A stretch of 40,985 nucleotides of DNA from Parcubacteria group bacterium (GCA_016177305.1 JACOVK010000061.1:1-40985), one strand, 5' to 3'; positions 11,857 through 22,138 are shown, numbered from the stretch's first letter. Numbers and translations: made by a program. The notes: generated by a model from the sequence alone, not told the origin.

Positions 11857-12177
11857 TTAATTAGCTACTGAATCTAATTTTACCTTTATATCTTCTTTTT
11901 TATGAAGCCCAACCAATACTTCGGCGGGTTTTCCGTCTTTAAATATAATGATTGTTGGAATACTCATAACCCCGTACCGGGAGCTTGATTCTTGATTCTC
12001 ATCAACGTTTATTTTGGCTATTTTTAGCCCTTTTTCCTCATCAGAAAGCTCATTAATAATGGGCCCTTGGATTTTGCACGGCCCGCACCATGGAGCCCAA
12101 AAATCAACAAGTACCACGCCCGAGACCTGCTCAACTTCTTGTTTAAAATTTTGATCAGTAAGTTCTATTGCTGGCAT
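11857..12177 (-). CDS. trxA: Thioredoxin
   Basis: WCGPCK active site, 106 aa. Confidence 0.95.
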   Translation of the reverse strand: MPAIELTDQNFKQEVEQVSGVVLVDFWAPWCGPCKIQGPIINELSDEEKGLKIAKINVDENQESSSRYGVMSIPTIIIFKDGKPAEVLVGLHKKEDIKVKLDSVAN

Positions 12178-12512
12178 GTGTTTTTTATTAACGATGTAGG
12201 GCGAGCGAAATGCAAAGCTAAAAGCTTAGCATTTCCGATGCCCACGAGCTAGTATATATTATAATTTTAATTCAGCATACTGTCTAATAGTAATAATTAT
12301 AGTACTGTGGAAGAAGTGGAAAAGGCTGTTTTTTGGCTAACAGTAGGAATAAACAGGAAATAATTTTTACTAATAACTGTGGTGCGTTGGGGGAGTATAC
12401 TATGGAGTCTTTGTGTATAACATTTGTCAGGAAAAATCCTGACAAGTTATAACAAGCACATGCGCACAGAAAATAAACAAACACCTGTTGAGTTTTACAC
12501 AGGGAATATTTT

Positions 12513-12526
12513 GGCTAATATTAGCC
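12513..12526. promoter_or_regulatory. Perfect 14-bp palindrome GGCTAATATTAGCC, copy 2
   Basis: Identical to the copy at 11842-11855. It is embedded in the AT-rich region next to the DnaA-box-like repeats. Confidence 0.6.
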
Positions 12527-12550
12527 TATTCACAGGAAATCCACAGGCAA

Positions 12551-12559
12551 TGTGGATAA
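12551..12559 (-). promoter_or_regulatory. Perfect DnaA box (TTATCCACA on the minus strand)
   Basis: The + strand reads TGTGGATAA. Weaker boxes: 12412-12420 (1 mismatch), and 12493-12501, 12526-12534 and 12537-12545 (2 mismatches each). Confidence 0.5.
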
Positions 12560-12607
12560 CATTTTAGTGCTATTTTTGCGAGATAGTTATGTTATATTTT
12601 TCTTGAC

Positions 12608-12648
12608 AAACCAAAGATACCCCTGGTTGTGACCAGAGGTATCTTTGG
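12608..12648 (-). terminator. Long hairpin terminator after tRNA-Ala(CGC)
   Basis: CCAAAGATACC.../...GGTATCTTTGG forms a 16-bp stem with 1 mismatch. Its 5' arm starts with the tRNA CCA end, and TTTG follows on the minus strand. Confidence 0.55.
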
Positions 12649-12721
12649 TGGACCTGAGGAGAATTGAACTCCTGGCCTTCGCAATGCGAATGCGACGCTC
12701 TACCAGCTGAGCTACAGGCCC
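12646..12721 (-). tRNA. tRNA-Ala(CGC)
   Basis: GGGCCTG TA GCTCAGCTGGTAGAGC G TCGCA TTCGCAT TGCGA AGGCC AGGAG TTCAATT CTCCT CAGGTCC A CCA. G3:U70 is present. Confidence 0.92.
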
Positions 12722-13104: not shown

Positions 13105-13181
13105 TGGTGGACCCGGCGGGGCTCGAACCCGCGACCTTTAGTATGCCATACTAACGCTCTAACCAGCTGAGCTACGGGCCC
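13105..13181 (-). tRNA. tRNA-Ala(GGC)
   Basis: GGGCCCG TA GCTCAGCTGGTTAGAGC G TTAGT ATGGCAT ACTAA AGGTC GCGGG TTCGAGC CCCGC CGGGTCC A CCA. G3:U70 is present. Confidence 0.92.
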
Positions 13182-13852
13182 AAATGTATTATTTTAGGTA
13201 TTTCTTGAAGCTCAAGTAGTATGTCCGCTGAAAAATAATTAATCCTGCAAACTCCCTTATAATCTGGTTTTTTTGATGGTTTTCCTATGGTTCGGGGATC
13301 AATTCTTGCTTTGTAGAATAGAGTCAGCGGAATTAATGTTATGTTTGACCAAAACAACTCAAGCGAACCAATATTTTGATCAGCGCGGCACTGTATTGTG
13401 CACCTGAATTTCATCTCATCAATAGTATAGCAGTTACGGAGAAGGCGCAAGAATAAGCTTATAATGAAAGGCGAGGAGTTTCCAAACGTAATGACCCCTC
13501 GGGTTTTTGATGACCCCTCGGTTATATATAGCAGAGCGAGCGCTATTTTTGCGATGTCAGGATTATAGAGCGCTGATGCGAGGGCGGCGTTGCGTTGTCG
13601 GATTATTTGCATGTAGGCAACGCGCCTCGTTCTGTTGGTCGCCGCAGCATATGTGCGAGCTCGGGCAAGGTTGTCAAGAATCAATACCCTCATTTTTTGT
13701 TCGTACCAGCCTGGAAGTTTAATATCTCTGCACCAGTGGGAAAGGGTTCCTTTTGAGATAGGCACCTTAACCGCTTTCTGGATTTCAGCATATGTCCCCC
13801 CTTTTTTTCGCAGCGAAACAACTTTTTTTTTGATGCGTTTGTGGTATGCCAT
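13172..13852 (-). CDS. AT-rich ORF with an N-terminal HTH and a LAGLIDADG-like endonuclease domain (putative homing-endonuclease-like protein)
   Basis: HTH-like segment GGTYAEIQKAVKVPISKGTLSHW. The segment LALLYITEGSSK..ITFGNSSPFIISLFLRLLRN resembles the LAGLIDADG motif and its following pattern. The composition is clearly more AT-rich than the neighbours. The last 10 nt overlap the 5' end of tRNA-Ala(GGC). Confidence 0.45.
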   Translation of the reverse strand: MAYHKRIKKKVVSLRKKGGTYAEIQKAVKVPISKGTLSHWCRDIKLPGWYEQKMRVLILDNLARARTYAAATNRTRRVAYMQIIRQRNAALASALYNPDIAKIALALLYITEGSSKTRGVITFGNSSPFIISLFLRLLRNCYTIDEMKFRCTIQCRADQNIGSLELFWSNITLIPLTLFYKARIDPRTIGKPSKKPDYKGVCRINYFSADILLELQEIPKIIHLGP

Positions 13853-15590: not shown

Positions 15591-16313
15591 CTATTGCGGC
15601 TGCGGGGCTCGTGCCGGCTTTTGGAACAGTATGATCTGCTGGATGAGCGTGGTGAGCGTGTTGATGGTCCAGTATAAGGTCAAGCCGCCCGGCAAGCTGG
15701 CGCCGAACACAACCGTGATCACCGGGGCGATGTACAGCATCTGCTTGTTCATCATGCTGGTCATGCTCTCGTCCGCTGATCCGGGGAGGGCGGGCTGGCG
15801 CTTGTGCACCAGCATCCTGGTTTGCAAGAATTGCAAGGCGCCCGCGATAACGGCGACGACGATGCTTGATTCCTTCAGGTCAAACACTCCGAGGAACACC
15901 ATATTGACCGCGCCCGGCTGCGCGACAAACGAGTAGAGCGCGTCAACACTTCCGGCGGCCACCTCGTCCCTAAGCACCTGGAAGATGGCGAGCAAAAAGG
16001 GCAGCTGGACCAAGAGCGGCAGGCAGGAAGAAAACGGGCTGACCTTTTCCTGCTTGTAGAGCAGCATGAGTTCGCGGCCCTGGCGCTCGCGGTCGTCTTT
16101 GTATTTTTTACGCAGCTCATCAACCTTCGGCTGGATTTCCTGCAGCGCTTTCTGCGAGTGCAGTGAGCGCGCGGAGAGCGGGTACAGAATTATTTTAACC
16201 AATACCGTGAGGCTGATGATAGCCCACCCGAAATCATCGCCCGGAATAATGTTGTGCAGCCAGACCAGGAGGTTCAAAATCGGTTGGTAGAACAAGATGA
16301 CAAACGGATTCAT
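15591..16313 (-). CDS. yidC: YidC/Oxa1 family membrane protein insertase (short form)
   Basis: 240 aa with 5 TM. Synteny is yidD-yidC. The conserved segment is ..IISLTVLVKIILYPLS..S...M..iQP....l..KY. Confidence 0.9.
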   Translation of the reverse strand: MNPFVILFYQPILNLLVWLHNIIPGDDFGWAIISLTVLVKIILYPLSARSLHSQKALQEIQPKVDELRKKYKDDRERQGRELMLLYKQEKVSPFSSCLPLLVQLPFLLAIFQVLRDEVAAGSVDALYSFVAQPGAVNMVFLGVFDLKESSIVVAVIAGALQFLQTRMLVHKRQPALPGSADESMTSMMNKQMLYIAPVITVVFGASLPGGLTLYWTINTLTTLIQQIILFQKPARAPQPQ

Positions 16314-16551: not shown

Positions 16552-16889
16552 GTGATGCGTGTTTTTTTGAACAAGCTGATCGTTAATGTTCGCAGTTCGC
16601 CAAATTCCAGTTCAAGCAGCGGCTTTTTGGTGATGAGAATGCCGTCAAAGCCCGGGGCAACTTTTGGCATGACGTCTCTGCGGATGATTTCGCGCAGCCT
16701 GCGCTTGAGCTTGTTGCGCAGCACCGATTTTTTGGAAATTTTGAGCGAGGTGATGATGGCGAAGCGCGAAACCTTGAGATTGTTTTTTGCCAATCGGATG
16801 CCGAGGTTGCCGACAAAAAAAGACCTGCCGCGTTTGTGCACGGCCTCAATGTCAGACCGTTTGGCAAGGCGGTTGGCCGCGTTCAGCAT
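16548..16889 (-). CDS. rnpA: Ribonuclease P protein component
   Basis: Basic 113-aa protein in the rpmH-rnpA-yidD-yidC synteny, with the segment KKSVLRNKLKRRLRE. Confidence 0.85.
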   Translation of the reverse strand: MLNAANRLAKRSDIEAVHKRGRSFFVGNLGIRLAKNNLKVSRFAIITSLKISKKSVLRNKLKRRLREIIRRDVMPKVAPGFDGILITKKPLLELEFGELRTLTISLFKKTRIT

Positions 16890-16892
16890 AGT

Positions 16893-17036
16893 TTAGGCAG
16901 GGGTAAGCCGCTTCCTGCCTTTTGCCTTCCGTCTTTTCAGAACGTTGCGGCCGCCCGGGCTTGCGCTGCGCTTCCGGAATCCGTGCACCCTTGCGCGCTT
17001 CTTCTTTTTTGGCTGGTAGGTTCGTTTTGTTGACAT
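16893..17036 (-). CDS. rpmH: 50S ribosomal protein L34
   Basis: [23 protein letters not shown]... I used the ATG at 17036, which is internal to the track ORF. Confidence 0.95.
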
Positions 17037-17116
17037 AGTGTTTGTGGAATTAGCAACAGATACAGAGTAGCACGTCAAGACGCTTGATACAAGCCTTGGT
17101 TATGGGGTTTGTGATT

Positions 17117-17863
17117 TTATGACCGGACTCCAATGCCCCACAGAAATTCAAAAATTTGTTTAAGGCTGAATGCCAGATCCGGCGAATAAATGATATACGC
17201 AATACCCTCTTTGCGCGTTGAAATCAGGCCAATGTTGTTTTCATAGATGTAGATACTGGCCTTCAAATCAACGTATTCGGGTAAGTACCGTATCTGCCGC
17301 AGGTAGGGTACTTGCTCATTGAAGATGGGTTCGTTGTGAACTGACTTTGATTTTATGCGGAGCGACCGCGTGTACAGTTTTGCATTCACACGGCGCGCAA
17401 TCCATTTTTTGATATATGTTTTGTCTACGGTTTGCAGGGTCAGTTCCGGAGGTGAGAAGTAGACATACTCTTTTTTAGCCTTTTTTAGTATGTCTTCGTA
17501 CACTTCGCGGCTGGCAAGCGGGCCTTGGAATATGCGTATTGATGGATTCTCGCCCTTATCCACATAGAGCGCCAAAAAATCCGGGAGCAAATCTTTGAGC
17601 TCCTGTTTTTGGATTTCAAATTTTTTATAGAGTTCTTTTGGCGGGAGCGCTATAAACGACTTTCGTTTGCCGTGGAATACGGTTTTTATGAACCCGCGCT
17701 CTTCCAAGGTACGGAGGTTGTCATATATGGCAGTGCGCCCGATGTTGAGGTCCTGCGCGAGGTCTTTTGCGGACCCTTCCCCGCGCTCAAGCGCGGCCAA
17801 ATAGAGCTGCGCCCGCTGGCTATCCAGCCCTGCAGAGAGCAGCCAGGAGATAAGGTTATTCAT
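17117..17863 (-). CDS. TrmB-family winged-helix transcriptional regulator
   Basis: LDSQRAQLYLAALERGEGSAKDLAQDLNIGRTAIYDNLRTLEERGFI followed by a TrmB-like C-terminal domain. I used the ATG at 17863. Confidence 0.7.
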   Translation of the reverse strand: MNNLISWLLSAGLDSQRAQLYLAALERGEGSAKDLAQDLNIGRTAIYDNLRTLEERGFIKTVFHGKRKSFIALPPKELYKKFEIQKQELKDLLPDFLALYVDKGENPSIRIFQGPLASREVYEDILKKAKKEYVYFSPPELTLQTVDKTYIKKWIARRVNAKLYTRSLRIKSKSVHNEPIFNEQVPYLRQIRYLPEYVDLKASIYIYENNIGLISTRKEGIAYIIYSPDLAFSLKQIFEFLWGIGVRS

Positions 17864-18053
17864 ATTTTCAATTATTTTTGACAAAAATTAAATTATTATT
17901 TACTTAATTTTAGCCTAAATCGCGTTAGGTTGCAATAGGATTTCAAAAATAGTTTACGATATTTTAGTTGTTTTTTATACTATAGGCATCCTGCAAAGTC
18001 CGGAATTACCGGACATTCACCACAGCGTTCATTTCATTCAGAAGGAGTGGAAT

Positions 18054-18431
18054 ATGCGTGCGATTGAAGAAATAGCCCAAGAAGGGCGGCTTGGCATGGT
18101 GGCCGAGTTGCTGGGCATGCACGATTTTGACGACCAGGCGTTCCAGTTTCTGGTTCGCGATCCGGAGTTCAGGGCCGCGGTTCGCAAAGCTGCCCAAAAA
18201 GCGTTCCGCAGGTGGGATGAGAAGGTTGCGGCAATCGTTGCGCACGTAAGCCGGTGCCGCTGGTGCCGCGAGAGAGCTCTTAGCTACGGCGACCAAGACC
18301 TTGAAGAACAGGTCAGGGGCTGGCGCCGTGTGGGCATGTTCAGGAATATTGAACAATTCGCCTGTGCAAAGACTCGCCGGGTGATTCCCATCAATAGACG
18401 ACAGCCAAACCGCGCTCGGGCGAAGAGCTGA
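18054..18431 (+). CDS. Hypothetical protein (125 aa, Arg-rich C-terminus)
   Basis: AAGGAG lies 6 nt upstream of the ATG. A TTTACG-17-TATACT promoter-like site sits at about 17953-17981. I recognised no family. Confidence 0.55.
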   Translation: MRAIEEIAQEGRLGMVAELLGMHDFDDQAFQFLVRDPEFRAAVRKAAQKAFRRWDEKVAAIVAHVSRCRWCRERALSYGDQDLEEQVRGWRRVGMFRNIEQFACAKTRRVIPINRRQPNRARAKS

Positions 18432-18582
18432 TTGTTCTAGCCTCTCATGAGGCAATACCCTCCCTTGCGGACGACAACGTCGTCTGTGGATGCTTGACAA
18501 GGCGCATGGTTTTGTGATAAGATGCAGTCTTCGTGTAAAAATCGCGAAGTGTTCCCAATAACCCCTAGCGAAAGGCTAGAAG

Positions 18583-19011
18583 ATGAAGCTCAAGGCGGTG
18601 ATTTCCAGAGATGCCCCTATGACGCTCTTCAAGGCGTTCAGCAGCGAAGGATTCGCCAGGACCTTCCTGGAGAACGTCTTGGTCGGCTGTCTCGGTGCGA
18701 AGGACCCGGCCGAGCGTCCAGCCGAGTACTACGTCCAGGAACCTGATCCCATGGTCACGGTCGGCGTGTGCCTCGGTGTGGAGCTCCGGCTCACGGGCAT
18801 CAGCAGGGGCGGGCGCACGGCCAAGCAGTTCCACGACGCCCTGAAGGCGCTCAAGGATCTCGCCGCGCGAACCATCGCCGAGAACCTCAAGGTTGGCCGC
18901 GTTCAGCTCTTTGTGGTCATCATGTTGGACGGCGATGTCGAGACCAAGCCCGGCTCGGGCCAGTACAGCAACGTGCTGGAGTCAGACGCCATCTGGGTCG
19001 AGACCAACTAG
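18583..19011 (+). CDS. Hypothetical protein (142 aa)
   Basis: It has its own TTGACA -35 box at 18494-18499 and is followed by a strong terminator. I recognised no family. Confidence 0.55.
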   Translation: MKLKAVISRDAPMTLFKAFSSEGFARTFLENVLVGCLGAKDPAERPAEYYVQEPDPMVTVGVCLGVELRLTGISRGGRTAKQFHDALKALKDLAARTIAENLKVGRVQLFVVIMLDGDVETKPGSGQYSNVLESDAIWVETN

Positions 19012-19046
19012 CCCAAGACGGCATAGCCTTCTGGCTCCGCCGACTG

Positions 19047-19098
19047 CACCCTTCTCTCGCAGATGGCAACATCGTCTGCGGGGGAGGGGTGTTTTTTT
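19047..19098 (+). terminator. Rho-independent terminator
   Basis: A long stem of about 17 bp including G:U pairs (core CGCAGA/TCTGCG) is followed by T7 at 19092-19098. Confidence 0.8.
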
Positions 19099-19123
19099 GT
19101 GTAGAATTTGCCGCCCAAAACCA

Positions 19124-19151
19124 TTGACAAATTTTGTAAAAGGGGTATAAT
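19124..19151 (+). promoter_or_regulatory. Near-consensus sigma70 promoter (TTGACA-16-TATAAT)
   Basis: TTGACA at 19124-19129, a 16-nt spacer, TATAAT at 19146-19151. Confidence 0.75.
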
Positions 19152-19157
19152 AAAAAT

Positions 19158-19251
19158 GTACCTGTGACCCGAAAGGGTTGTTCGGCTAAAGGAATTTCCA
19201 TACGCCGAAAGCAGGTACACTAAAAAACCGCCTTCCTTGAGGCGGTTTTTT
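19158..19251 (+). ncRNA. Candidate stand-alone small RNA of about 94 nt: a three-helix fold followed by an intrinsic terminator
   Basis: P1 is GTACCTG/CAGGTAC (19158-64 / 19212-18). P2 is ACCC-GAAA-GGGT. P3 is CGGC...GCCG. The terminator is at 19222-19251. There is no plausible ORF (only ATG-TAC-CTG-TGA) and no + strand gene downstream. Confidence 0.6.
19222..19251. terminator. Bidirectional intrinsic terminator
   Basis: AAAAAACCGCC-TTCCTTGA-GGCGGTTTTTT. It serves the + strand sRNA and the convergent minus-strand gyrA-operon ORF. Confidence 0.85.
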
Positions 19252-19654
19252 AGTTGCGTCGCTTGTCTTTCTTTTTCCAGATACTGTAAAAGTGAATGTT
19301 CCCAGTTCCTATTCTTCTCAAGATGACCGTGACTTTTGTATTTTGTTTCCCAACAACATGCCCTAATTCCCAAATTTCTGTCTTCTTTCCAAGCTTTTTA
19401 GAAAATTCTGATTTGTACTCAATCACTTCGTTGGCGTTTTTGATTACCGGAATCAACAACGGCAGCAGTCCGAGACGATACATCCTTTCTTTTTTTGATC
19501 GGGCGTGCCCTAACCCGTCATAGAGTAAGTGGCGGAAACCCTTGGAGGTAAAATGAATATCTTCGCTTAACAGAGGACAGTGCACCTGTCTCACCGCTTT
19601 GTACCATCCCCTTTTCTCTGTCACCATTCTTTCGTAGTATGTTTGTCCCTCCAT
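19250..19654 (-). CDS. AT-rich hypothetical protein (134 aa) appended to the gyrA operon
   Basis: The ATG at 19654 lies 9 nt after the gyrA stop. The composition is clearly more AT-rich than gyrA. The C-terminus is Lys-rich. I recognised no family. Confidence 0.55.
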   Translation of the reverse strand: MEGQTYYERMVTEKRGWYKAVRQVHCPLLSEDIHFTSKGFRHLLYDGLGHARSKKERMYRLGLLPLLIPVIKNANEVIEYKSEFSKKLGKKTEIWELGHVVGKQNTKVTVILRRIGTGNIHFYSIWKKKDKRRN

Positions 19655-19663
19655 ACACGACAA

Positions 19664-22138
19664 CTACACCAAGGTCACGTTCGCAACGCGGTCGCCGGGC
19701 TGCTTGAAGCGCATGATGCGCACCCCCTGCGTGGCGCGGCCGAGCTTGTTGATGGACTTTAAGGGCAAGCGGATGGTCTGGCCCTTGGCGGAAATGGCGA
19801 GCACGTCCGTCTTTTCATCTACGGTCGCGGGATCAAGCAAGCGCGCGCCCACAACCTCGCCGGTTTTGGAGGAGACGTTCGCGGTTTTAATGCCGGATCC
19901 GCCGCGGGACTGGACCTTGTACTCGCTCGCGGGGGACTGCTTGCCGTAGCCCTGGCTCATGACTACCAGCAGGGTTGTGTCTTTTTGCTTTTTGGGGTCA
20001 AAAATATCCATGCCAACCACGCGGTCAGCCTTTTTGAGGCGGATGCCCCGCACCCCGGCCGCTGCCCGGCCCATTGGCCTGACGCCTGTTTCCTCAAACC
20101 GGATGGCTTGCCCTGCCTGGGATACGAGCACAATGTTGTCACGCCCGCTGGAAGGCTTTACCCAGCGCAAGGAGTCGCCCTCTTTGAGCTTGATGGCAAT
20201 CAAGCCGCTCCGGCGCACGTGGCTAAAGTCATTGATATCAACCTTTTTGATGGTGCCTTCGCGCGTGACCATCACCAAAAACTTGGAGTCCTTGATGTCA
20301 TCAAGCGAGAGCACTACATTGATGCGTTCTTCTCCGGAAATCTGCAAAAAGTTCATGAGCGACGAGCCCTTGGCCGTGCGGCTCGCAACCGGAATGTCGT
20401 AGCCCTTGAGCTGGAACACCCTTCCGCGCGTGGTAAAGAAGAGGATGTCTGAGTGCGTCATGCCCGTAAAGAAGATGGACACCTCGTCCTCTTCCTTGGT
20501 GGTTAAACCGACCACGCCTTTGCCGCCGCGGCCTTGGGTCTTAAAGGTGTCGGGAGATAAGCGCTTGATGTACCCGTCGCGCGTAATCATGACCACCATG
20601 CCTTCGTTCGGAATCAGGTCCTCCTGGGAGAACTTATCAACCCCGCCGGCCACAATTTTGGTGCGGCGCTCTTCGCCGTAGGCGGCCTTGAGGTCCGCAA
20701 GCTCGCCTTTGATGATGGCAATCACTTTCTTGGGGCTTGCGAGGATTGCCTCAAGCTCCGCGATCCACTCTCGCTTTTCTTTGAGCTCGTCTTCCAGCTT
20801 CTTGCGCTCCAGGTTCGCAAGCTGGGACAGGCGCATGTCAAGAATTGCATTGGCCTGCAGTTCCGTGAATTTGAACGCCTTCATTAATCCGACCCGCGCT
20901 TCGTCGCGATCCTTGGATTTTTTGATCAAGGCGATCACCTTGTCAATAATGCCGATTGCCTTAACCAAACCTTCCAGAATGTGGGCGCGCGCCTTGGCGC
21001 GGGCAAGGTCAAATTCGGTCCTGCGGCGGATGACGGTTTTACGGTGTTTGATGAACTCTTCAAAAATGCTCTTTAGCGTCAGCACGCGCGGCTGGATGCC
21101 GTCCACCAGTGCGAGCATGTTCACGTGGAAGGTTGCCTGCAGGGCAGTGAGCTTAAAAAGGCGGTTTAAGATTTTTTGCGGGTACGTGTCTTTCTTCAGC
21201 TCAATCACCACGCGCACGCCGTCTTTGTCGGACTCGTCCCGCAGGTCGCGGATCCCTTCAATTTTTTTGTCCTTTACCAGCTCCGCGATTTTAGTGATGA
21301 GGTCCGCCTTGTTTACCTGGAACGGGATTTCCGTGATGATGATGTCGTGCGCCCCGCCCCGCGCTTCCACGATGTCCGTGACCCCGCGCATCACAATGCC
21401 GCCGCGGCCGGTTGCGTAGGCCTGTTTGATGTCGTCCTTGTTGTAGATGATGCCGCCCGTGGGGAAGTCCGGGCCCCTTACGATTTTGGCGAGCTCGCTT
21501 GCGTCAATGTCGGCATCGTCAAGAAGGGCCGCAATGCCGAGGCAGAGCTCGGAAAGGTTGTGCGGGGGAATGTTGGTTGCCATGCCCACGGCAATGCCCA
21601 GCGTGCCGTTTAGGAGCAGGTTCGGAAGCTTTGCCGGCAAAACGCGCGGTTCCTTTTGGGTGCCGTCGTAGTTGTCCGCAAAATCAACGGTTTCTTTTTC
21701 AATGTCAGCCAGGAGTTCTTCCGCGACTCTTGCGAGCTTGGCTTCGGTGTAGCGCATGGCTGCGGCGCCGTCCCCGTCCATGGACCCGAAGTTTCCCTGG
21801 CCGTGTATGAGCGGATGGCGCATGGAAAAGTCCTGTGCCATGCGCACCATGGCATCGTACACCGCAACGTCCCCGTGCGGGTGGTACTTGCCCAGCACTT
21901 CTCCGACGACGGTCGCGCTCTTGCGGAATTTGGCCGAAGGCTTTAGGCCCAAGGTCCACATGGCGTACAAAATCCTGCGGTGCACGGGCTTTAAGCCGTC
22001 CCGCACGTCCGGCAGGGCGCGCGAAACAATCACGGACATGGCGTAGTCCAAGTACGCCCGCTGCATCTCATCAACAATGGGCTGCTTTTCCACCCTGCCT
22101 CGGCTGTCCGGCTTTGGTTGTTCTTCCTTTTTCGGCAT
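19664..22138 (-). CDS. gyrA: DNA gyrase subunit A
   Basis: [18 protein letters not shown] (active-site Tyr) and C-terminal beta-pinwheel repeats. 824 aa. Confidence 0.97.

Follow-up and report, generated by a model that had tools for sequence, protein, structure and literature searches.

The rpmH-gyrA junction of a Parcubacteria genome, a probable site of gene turnover that holds three separate units, one of them a convergent RNA-protein gene pair

Introduction

Hot spots of horizontal transfer between conserved core genes are an established concept in comparative genomics. The ultra-small genomes of the Candidate Phyla Radiation (CPR) are generally regarded as streamlined, with few mobile elements. 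What, then, fills the 2.6-kb interval between rpmH and gyrA in a Parcubacteria group bacterium (GCA_016177305.1, JACOVK010000061.1), do its parts form one system, and how did they come to lie there? The interval contains a TrmB-like regulator (TrmBL), three small open reading frames (ORFs B, C and D) and a structured small RNA (sRNA). The window analyzed here, 40,985 bp long, is the entire contig C5 of a metagenome-assembled genome (606 kb in 90 contigs, 81% complete). An initial annotation, made from the sequence alone, had described the interval as an accessory island, of the kind that carries defense or addiction modules, in which a regulator stands divergent from cargo of unrecognized function next to an orphan sRNA. 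Every feature that it listed is present, at the same position or within a few bases of it; the way in which these features belong together is a different matter.

Our reading, to which we give a probability of about 0.72, is that the interval represents the strain-specific filling of a gene-turnover hot spot by three separate units, and not one system. The first unit consists of TrmBL, a bidirectional control region and ORF B, the second of ORF C, and the third of the sRNA and ORF D. Turnover of this kind bears on how ultra-small CPR genomes gain and lose genes, as a former origin-side junction would undergo rapid exchange of cassettes in the absence of a recognizable recombinase. The units themselves bring a structured RNA class that is outside Rfam 15 and tied to the LPD3 domain, a Parcubacteria-specific family with a predicted tautomerase fold but no Pro-1, and what appears to be a portable regulator-promoter unit accepting different cargo; two of the protein families have no described function.

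Results and discussion

The rpmH-gyrA junction in related genomes

The interval is bracketed by conserved genes:

15591-16313, minus strand: yidC, followed by yidD, rnpA and rpmH, all on the minus strand, and then by the 2.6-kb interval
16893-17036, minus strand: rpmH, the left conserved flank, from which the rpmH-rnpA-yidD-yidC cluster runs on leftward
19664-22138, minus strand: gyrA, the right conserved flank

Starting from rnpA, which we located in 40 relatives, we retrieved the sequence upstream of rpmH and mapped the window proteins onto it; homologues of these proteins were drawn from Parcubacteria/Paceibacterota and other CPR lineages. Gene order including the rpmH flank was recovered by tblastn in 13 genomes of the family, while G007, in which rnpA lies at a contig edge, was left out of the junction states. 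The order around the junction is kept and reads MBL-fold gene, orf85, gyrA, rpmH, rnpA, yidD, yidC. The junction itself is not kept: rpmH is adjoined by gyrA in seven of the 13 family genomes, including three of the four congeners, across a gap of about 40-115 bp in which no gene remnants were found, and the other six hold differing, unrelated inserts of 1-3.8 kb:

G001, G003, G004 (same genus), G006, G008, G009: gyrA abuts rpmH, gap about 40-60 bp
G012: gyrA abuts rpmH, gap 114 bp
G036 (different family): gyrA abuts rpmH, gap about 12 bp
G013: insert of 0.98 kb
G002: insert of 1.9 kb; weak GIY-YIG protein, proteasome-type hydrolase and ORF C
G005: insert of 2.1 kb; TrmBL and asparaginase
G010: insert of 2.2 kb; Ion_trans/bestrophin-like channel
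window genome: insert of 2.6 kb
G011 (L020 625-4233): insert of 3.8 kb; EcoRI-type adenine methylase, GmrSD_N/HNH endonuclease, membrane-like protein and DUF3800, a restriction/defense islet

The description as an accessory island is thus borne out by the empty junctions and by the unrelated cargo in the rest; no ORF of the interval belongs to a housekeeping family. The initial annotation had also taken dnaA and the origin to be the normal occupants of the site. This is true of sister families, dnaA being the divergent neighbor of rpmH in five other families of the class (G016, G025, G030, G037 and G040), but not of the present one, where the neighbor is gyrA; in the window genome, dnaA is found away from rpmH, on contig C36. 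In this family, the rpmH-gyrA site is an old rearrangement junction turned variable.

As at other core-flanked hot spots, conserved genes (the rpmH-side cluster and gyrA) enclose a site with no insert in many relatives and with unrelated accessory or defense cargo in the others. Unlike them, this site belongs to a CPR genome of about 0.6-1 Mb, stands at a former rpmH/dnaA junction, and is filled with promoter-to-terminator cassettes of 0.5-0.9 kb with no recombinase, tRNA gene or repeats.

A mosaic of separately travelling cassettes

The interval was compared piecewise with its relatives, through blastn and tblastn searches of their DNA and blastn of the fetched loci. Each piece turns up without the others:

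17113-17887: TrmBL, only in G005 (76% nucleotide and 83% amino acid identity)
17960-18445: ORF B preceded by -10 box, palindrome and ribosome-binding site, only in the metagenome lineage L082-L084 (89% nucleotide identity)
18489-19098: ORF C from promoter to terminator, only in G002, about 23 bp off the rpmH-side similarity (89% nucleotide identity)
19124-19636: sRNA promoter through ORF D, only in G012, on a contig other than that of its rpmH-gyrA junction (74% nucleotide identity)

The G+C content of the cassettes spans 42% to 62%. Regulator, cargo and sRNA, which had been taken as one module, travel separately. A single defense or addiction system, with everything from ORF B to ORF D, the sRNA included, under TrmBL control, would fit the presence of all parts within 2.6 kb, the divergence of regulator and cargo, and the restriction-modification genes that occupy the same junction in another family genome. 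We nonetheless consider it hardly credible, since each part occurs elsewhere without the others and has its own predicted promoter and terminator, and since the TrmBL region faces an asparaginase gene in G005 or the gene of a Cys-rich protein in G032. PADLOC models likewise gave no match for ORFs B, C and D, and TrmBL matched only the generic helix-turn-helix (HTH) parts of CasR/Csa3; PHROGs and NCBIfam returned nothing for the three ORFs. A defense or addiction role is hypothetical, and plausible solely for the pair formed by the sRNA and the LPD3-like ORF D.

Could the interval instead be what is left of one mobile element that integrated here, whether a prophage, an integrative element, an island borne by an insertion sequence or the like? 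The low G+C content of TrmBL and ORF D points in this direction, as do the LPD3 domain, which typically occurs in polyvalent proteins of phages and conjugative elements (PMC5512222), and the duplicated gyrA 3' ends of a relative, which recall att sites. In that relative (L084), ORF B is followed by a 42-nucleotide copy (90% identity) and a 16-nucleotide copy of the gyrA 3' end (907-948 and 968-983), then by a DUF4325 + MerR/ATPase pair, and only then by the genuine gyrA; the arrangement of these copies points to insertions having occurred repeatedly at the end of gyrA in that lineage. Within the window, however, no flanking direct repeats, no duplicates of the gyrA end or of the rpmH side and no att sites were found, and the interval ORFs include no integrase, transposase, recombinase or phage structural gene detectable with Pfam or PHROGs. 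The hallmarks of genomic islands and integrative elements (integrase or transposase, direct repeats, tRNA or att target) are thus missing from the interval, and the spread of G+C content among the cassettes also weighs against one element. A viral origin of the cassettes was rejected, as neither ORF C nor ORF D has relatives among IMG/VR viral contigs. All in all, a single mobile element seems very improbable. An exact 17-nucleotide direct repeat, GGTTGGCCGCGTTCAGC, was also noted at 16871-16887 and 18891-18907, that is, in the first codons of rnpA (opposite strand) and in the interior of ORF C; it is improbable by chance in 2.9 kb and could be microhomology or coincidence.

A third possibility is differential loss: the genes would have stood at the junction ancestrally and have disappeared from most relatives. 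Reductive evolution is a known trait of CPR genomes, ORF C is divergent to rpmH at this place in three family genomes of two genera (G000, G002 and G013) with a host-like G+C content, and TrmBL stands beside rpmH not only in the window but also in G005 and two metagenome lineages. These are outweighed, in our view, by the seven family genomes with a gap of 40-115 bp devoid of remnants and by the unrelated cargo at the site elsewhere. Moreover, the sRNA and ORF D have a G+C content of 42% and their closest copy, in G012, is off that genome's junction contig, while the contexts of ORF C vary outside the family. Loss alone is accordingly an improbable explanation of the whole interval.

Gain of three units at a variable junction remains our preferred explanation. 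Their probable route was recombination through the conserved genes on either side, or else insertion at the 3' end of gyrA. Several points weigh against it: the comparison sample is small (the 13 family genomes and a few metagenome contigs) and the genome itself is 81% complete; neither repeats nor att sites nor a recombinase mark the cassette borders in the window, as described above; and ORF C, with its three family genomes, two genera and host-like G+C content, may be an older junction resident lost elsewhere and not an arrival.

A structured RNA paired with ORF D

The third unit has the following components:

19124-19151, plus strand: sRNA promoter TTGACA-16-TATAAT, a 12/12 consensus match, with equivalents preceding the RNA at related loci
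19158-19252, plus strand: structured sRNA of about 95 nucleotides, fold energy -45.9 kcal/mol, z = -7.1
19158-19219, plus strand: three-way-junction core of the sRNA (61 nucleotides), with P1 of 7 bp, a GNRA-capped P2, and P3 comprising an internal loop and a distal hairpin
19219-19254: A-rich linker and bidirectional terminator, 3' of the sRNA core
19250-19654, minus strand: ORF D, 134 amino acids, isoelectric point (pI) 10.1, grand average of hydropathy -0.65, starting 9 nucleotides past the gyrA stop

The fold of the RNA is well supported by comparative evidence. An alignment of 39 sequences supports P1 (7 bp), P2 (5 bp), P3 (5 bp) and a distal 2-bp helix; 95.5% of the cells in these helices are paired, versus 34-47% in slid controls, compensatory changes are seen in 15 of 19 pairs, and none of 500 shuffles reaches the observed covariation. 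The P2 loop is a GNRA tetraloop in 38 of the 39 sequences, and the P3 internal loop (CUAAG...AUAnG) resembles a tetraloop receptor of the 11-nucleotide type, which may allow a tertiary contact. No Rfam 15 family matches the sRNA at gathering thresholds; among the matches at an E-value threshold, which depend mostly on the terminator hairpin, the best (Phe_leader) reaches 23.8 bits where 55 would be needed. With a covariance model, one copy was found in this genome and copies in four of the 40 relatives. A riboswitch was considered and set aside: most loci have no downstream gene on the same strand, and no conserved antiterminator pairing was visible by eye, the terminator stems being different from one another.

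ORF D lies convergent to the sRNA. The terminator, which is symmetric (A-run, hairpin, T-run), is common to both, so that the two transcripts have complementary 3' ends. In 22 of 29 loci it falls within the last 15-40 coding nucleotides of ORF D, so that the U-tract of the sRNA encodes part of the Lys-rich ORF D tail. The G+C content of ORF D, 42.2%, is at the 0.7th percentile of 400-bp windows in a genome with a mean of 56.6%.

The ORF D family comprises 63 clusters, with relatives in the genomes of 42 species across CPR groups. Pfam LPD3 (PF18798) is matched by 23 of 41 family members at E <= 0.01 (best 4.1e-6), the window protein itself scoring 20.5 bits, below the 27-bit cut-off. Its structural model, a soluble alpha+beta fold with a predicted local distance difference test (pLDDT) score of 92, has no fold match in the PDB (best E 0.2), nor did a profile search of the PDB return any match. 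In BFVD, by contrast with the PDB, the best eight matches have probabilities of at least 0.99, TMq of 0.53-0.64 and E-values as low as 1.9e-4; five of these eight are annotated as LPD3 or large polyvalent protein, and most are phage proteins of about 970-1,400 amino acids. LPD3 has been found in phage and conjugative polyvalent proteins, with no function assigned (Iyer et al. 2017, PMC5512222). ORF D is like the LPD3 of these proteins in its predicted fold, and part of its family matches the profile; it is unlike it in being a stand-alone protein, paired with an sRNA in chromosomal contexts of CPR genomes and not embedded in a phage or conjugative polyvalent protein.

The initial annotation had considered the sRNA an orphan, a description overturned by its conserved partnership with the adjacent ORF D. 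When loci are collected from the protein side, a convergent sRNA homologue is present just beyond the ORF D stop in 39 of 41; of the two exceptions, one is cut off by a contig edge, and at the other the RNA has diverged but keeps the architecture and matches the model weakly. When they are collected from the RNA side, through a motif scan of metagenome contigs, 53 contigs are retrieved, two of which end too early; a convergent ORF D is present in 41 of the 51 informative ones and absent from ten. The ten include one ORF D remnant, two contigs with another protein pair in its place and three in which the motif has no terminator and precedes a small ORF, all discussed below. Distant ORF D paralogues in G002 and G037 also have weak convergent matches to the RNA model. 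No third conserved gene was found beside the pair. The sRNA and ORF D are thus a self-contained convergent RNA-protein gene pair whose members co-evolve, with a patchy distribution, variable contexts and 3'-complementary transcripts.

Some genomes carry the pair more than once. Tandem modules are present in L048 (3933-4406 and 5540-6029), with proteins 54% and 39% identical to the window ORF D, and L059 and L073 show two modules in one genome, on separate contigs. In L117 and L134, the sRNA and its terminator are convergent to a pair of 136- and 129-amino-acid proteins that replaces ORF D and, judging from the sequences, looks like a HEPN/minimal nucleotidyltransferase toxin-antitoxin (TA) pair.

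What the pair does can be proposed from these features. The sRNA would be produced in excess from its consensus promoter; it would bind the basic ORF D protein through its conserved junction and loops, lower ORF D expression via the 3' duplex, or both, and the two would thus form an addiction-like or ribonucleoprotein pair. We lean slightly towards direct and specific binding of some kind between the sRNA and ORF D. More tentatively, the pair may act as a TA-like or otherwise new RNA-protein module. Equally tentative is the wider suggestion of an undescribed class of two-component RNA-protein modules, widespread in CPR/Patescibacteria, in which the RNA is the dedicated partner of an LPD3 protein, as antitoxin or cofactor. 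Were it true, it would provide a first functional handle on the LPD3 of phage polyvalent proteins, as an RNA-binding or RNA-acting domain.

Two types of known system invite comparison. In type I TA pairs such as txpA/RatA and bsrG/SR4 of Bacillus subtilis, the antisense RNA overlaps the 3' end of the toxin mRNA. Similarly, the sRNA is convergent, has a strong promoter and is complementary at its 3' end to the ORF D mRNA, and the distribution is patchy, with duplicates in some genomes. However, type I toxins are short hydrophobic peptides, whereas ORF D is a soluble, basic protein of 134 amino acids with an LPD3 fold; the overlap is confined to the terminator, about 30-35 nucleotides, and antisense pairing has no need of a three-way junction. 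In type III systems (ToxIN and others), a tandem-repeat RNA precedes, on the same strand, the gene of an endoribonuclease toxin, which processes it. Here too a structured RNA could neutralize a neighboring protein by binding, but the sRNA forms one unit between a promoter and a terminator of its own, lies on the strand opposite to ORF D, and has no repeat array. The pair fails the defining features of both types and should be filed under neither.

Alternatively, the sRNA could act alone, as a trans-acting regulator or a leader, with ORF D merely hitch-hiking on a common terminator. About 20% of the sRNA copies (10 of the 51 informative contigs) have no ORF D, and the RNA may thus act on its own; in four loci (L079, which is G013:C60 1178-1237, and L107, L125 and L159) the motif keeps its promoter, has no terminator and runs into a same-strand ORF of 65-85 amino acids with a ribosome-binding site, as if it were a 5' leader; and the loops and junction nucleotides are conserved as a ligand or protein site would be. 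The linkage of the two genes from either side argues the other way, as do the absence of any other gene conserved nearby, the correspondingly diverged RNAs of distant ORF D subfamilies, and the tandem duplications, which copy both parts. We regard an independent sRNA as unlikely. Besides the solitary and leader-like copies, three further points tell against a dedicated RNA-protein module. Antisense action at the ORF D ribosome-binding site was tried and rejected, the cognate duplex of the sRNA with the ORF D 5' region (-19.7 kcal/mol) being no better than non-cognate ones (-19.8 kcal/mol, p = 0.47). The promoters, the sRNA ends and the co-transcription of ORF D with gyrA are predictions from sequence. 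Finally, a toxic activity of ORF D would be hypothetical.

TrmBL, its control region and ORF B

The first unit is made up of a regulator, a control region and a divergent cargo gene:

17117-17863, minus strand: TrmBL, winged-helix regulator, 248 amino acids, pI 9.5, 47% G+C
17864-18053, no strand: bidirectional control region, 190 bp, 30% G+C
17876-17886: conserved palindrome TTTTGACAAAA, adjoining the TrmBL start
17940-17957: conserved box ATTTCAAAAATAGTTTAC, overlapping the -35 of the cargo promoter
17953-17981: promoter-like site of the cargo (ORF B), TTTACG-17-TATACT, from the promoter scan
17998-18014: GC palindrome GTCCGG-AATTA-CCGGAC, in the ORF B leader
18054-18431, plus strand: ORF B, 125 amino acids, pI 10.5, with a GGAG ribosome-binding site

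The N-terminal winged helix of TrmBL matches the Pfam TrmB domain (PF01978; residues 11-75, E 4.5e-10, 39.7 bits for a cut-off of 25.6), and no Pfam domain was found in its C-terminal part, including the sugar-binding domain Regulator_TrmB. At 32 bits, it is far below the NCBIfam TrmB equivalog cut-off of 600. TrmBL shares with the TrmB family (PF01978; archaeal TrmB/TrmBL1) the N-terminal domain and a position divergent to a presumed target with palindromic control elements; it differs in its length of about 250 amino acids, in having no detected sugar-binding domain, and in belonging to a CPR-wide family. Proteins of this kind are common in CPR, with up to nine matches per genome among the relatives searched and many distant paralogues in each genome. 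Close orthologues occur only in G005 (83% identity, same junction) and G032 (62%).

The cargo facing TrmBL changes from one lineage to another: ORF B in the window and L085, an asparaginase in G005, and a Cys-rich protein of 92 amino acids in G032. According to an alignment of the control regions, the AT-rich boxes TTTTGACAAAA and ATTTCAAAAATAGTTTAC are kept across four lineages despite these three different divergent genes. The GC palindrome behaves differently. It is found only alongside ORF B (window, L082 and L085) and is missing where TrmBL faces asparaginase, and it is therefore an element of the ORF B leader, either a hairpin or the site of another factor. As a TrmBL operator it is disfavored, since it travels with ORF B even in L082, whose TrmBL has lost its DNA-binding half. 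On sequence grounds, the AT-rich boxes are better candidate operators than the GC palindrome. TrmBL would bind these boxes, one covering its own start and the other the cargo -35, thereby repressing the cargo until a signal is received; the control region would drive whichever cargo lies divergent, the whole acting as a portable repressor/promoter unit with a swappable gene.

Four promoter-like sites were obtained in the promoter scan, for a shuffled expectation of 2.5 +/- 1.7, so that there is no excess; the credibility of the predicted promoters rests on their position and their conservation in relatives, and not on the scan count.

Two variants of this unit deserve mention. In L082 (5522-5908), a deletion has removed the N-terminal DNA-binding half of TrmBL together with its promoter, ending just upstream of the ORF B -10 box. 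In L089 (G032; 2416-2694), the 62% TrmBL orthologue is divergent to the 92-amino-acid protein, which is rich in CxxC motifs, and the leader has a different GC palindrome, CCGCT-N5-AGCGG, where the GTCCGG palindrome stands in the window.

ORF B is always divergent to TrmBL at the rpmH-gyrA junction. Plus-strand coding is supported by its differences from a 72% homologue, which are distributed as 19, 24 and 50 over the three codon positions, with a third-position excess. Its conserved residues are H64, C68, C71 and C104 (H-x3-C-x2-C...C), followed by an NRARAK tail. Only two further clusters at 90% identity were found, and a single cluster at 50% among 1.84 billion representatives. The sole additional match in a full HMMER scan, the low-complexity Ala/Arg/Val repeat protein P0119, was judged an artefact. 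Going by these searches, ORF B is a true orphan confined to this lineage. In L082, where the adjacent TrmBL is broken, ORF B is intact; this homologue (84% identity by BLASTP, 86% in the alignment) has 11, 8 and 8 differences over the three codon positions, with six synonymous and 17 non-synonymous codon changes, which hints, from small numbers, at relaxed constraint.

A predicted tautomerase-superfamily fold in ORF C

The second unit is a solitary gene with its own signals:

18494-18523, plus strand: ORF C promoter TTGACA-18-TAAGAT with a TG extension, from the promoter scan; the cassette copy in G002 begins at 18489
18583-19011, plus strand: ORF C, 142 amino acids
19046-19099, plus strand: intrinsic terminator of ORF C, a 20-pair stem (19046-19092) followed by a T-run; the similarity with G002 ends at 19098

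The ORF C family has 48 clusters, all annotated as hypothetical and, where named, all from Parcubacteria/Paceibacterota. It has no Pfam domain, none of 42 members matches any tautomerase or MIF family at E <= 1, and a profile search of the PDB returned nothing. The AlphaFold model, built from a 42-sequence alignment, has a pLDDT of 96.9, and its top 50 PDB matches are all members of the tautomerase superfamily (fused 4-OT, MSAD, cis-CaaD/Cg10062, MIF and CHMI), with probabilities of 0.90-1.00, TM scores of 0.39-0.62 and E-values from 9e-4. We are confident, from this model, that ORF C adopts a fused beta-alpha-beta fold of the tautomerase superfamily. The initial annotation had recognized none of the small proteins; ORFs C and D can now be related to known folds, while ORF B stays an orphan.

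Fused two-domain members of the tautomerase superfamily include MSAD, cis-CaaD, MIF and fused 4-OT (Davidson et al. 2018, PMC5818174). The ORF C model has their fused beta-alpha-beta fold; unlike them, ORF C has no N-terminal proline, no profile match, and its own set of conserved charged residues. The protein begins with MKLKA, and M1, K2 and K4 are at least 90% conserved across the 42 aligned sequences; as the family starts with a nearly invariant M-K-x-K, the catalytic Pro-1 is lacking. R78 and E133 are invariant, and E48, R69, R75, H84 and D116 nearly so, a pattern of conservation that suggests an active site or binding site of another kind. Most probably, ORF C is an enzyme of small size, or a protein that binds a ligand, with a different chemistry.

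Among the 40 relatives, ORF C was found only in G002 and G013, in both at the rpmH-gyrA junction and divergent from rpmH. Outside the family it is a solo gene amid unrelated housekeeping or accessory genes, and it is not a defense-type gene.

Other observations in the window

Three observations concern the conserved surroundings of the junction. In G009 (L015 4974-6277) and G012 (L018 2854-4157), gyrA is interrupted near residue 131 by about 1.3 kb of inserted sequence, with matches covering residues 1-131 and 131-824; its position and size suggest a GyrA intein. The cumulative GC skew of the window has its minimum (-1.95) near 12 kb (about 12000-12650), beside an AT-rich gap that is a candidate origin; the island would then lie only about 5-7 kb from an origin, although dnaA is on a different contig. 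Lastly, an AT-rich ORF of 226 amino acids (13172-13852), with only a weak HTH match in Pfam, overlaps the start of tRNA-Ala(GGC).

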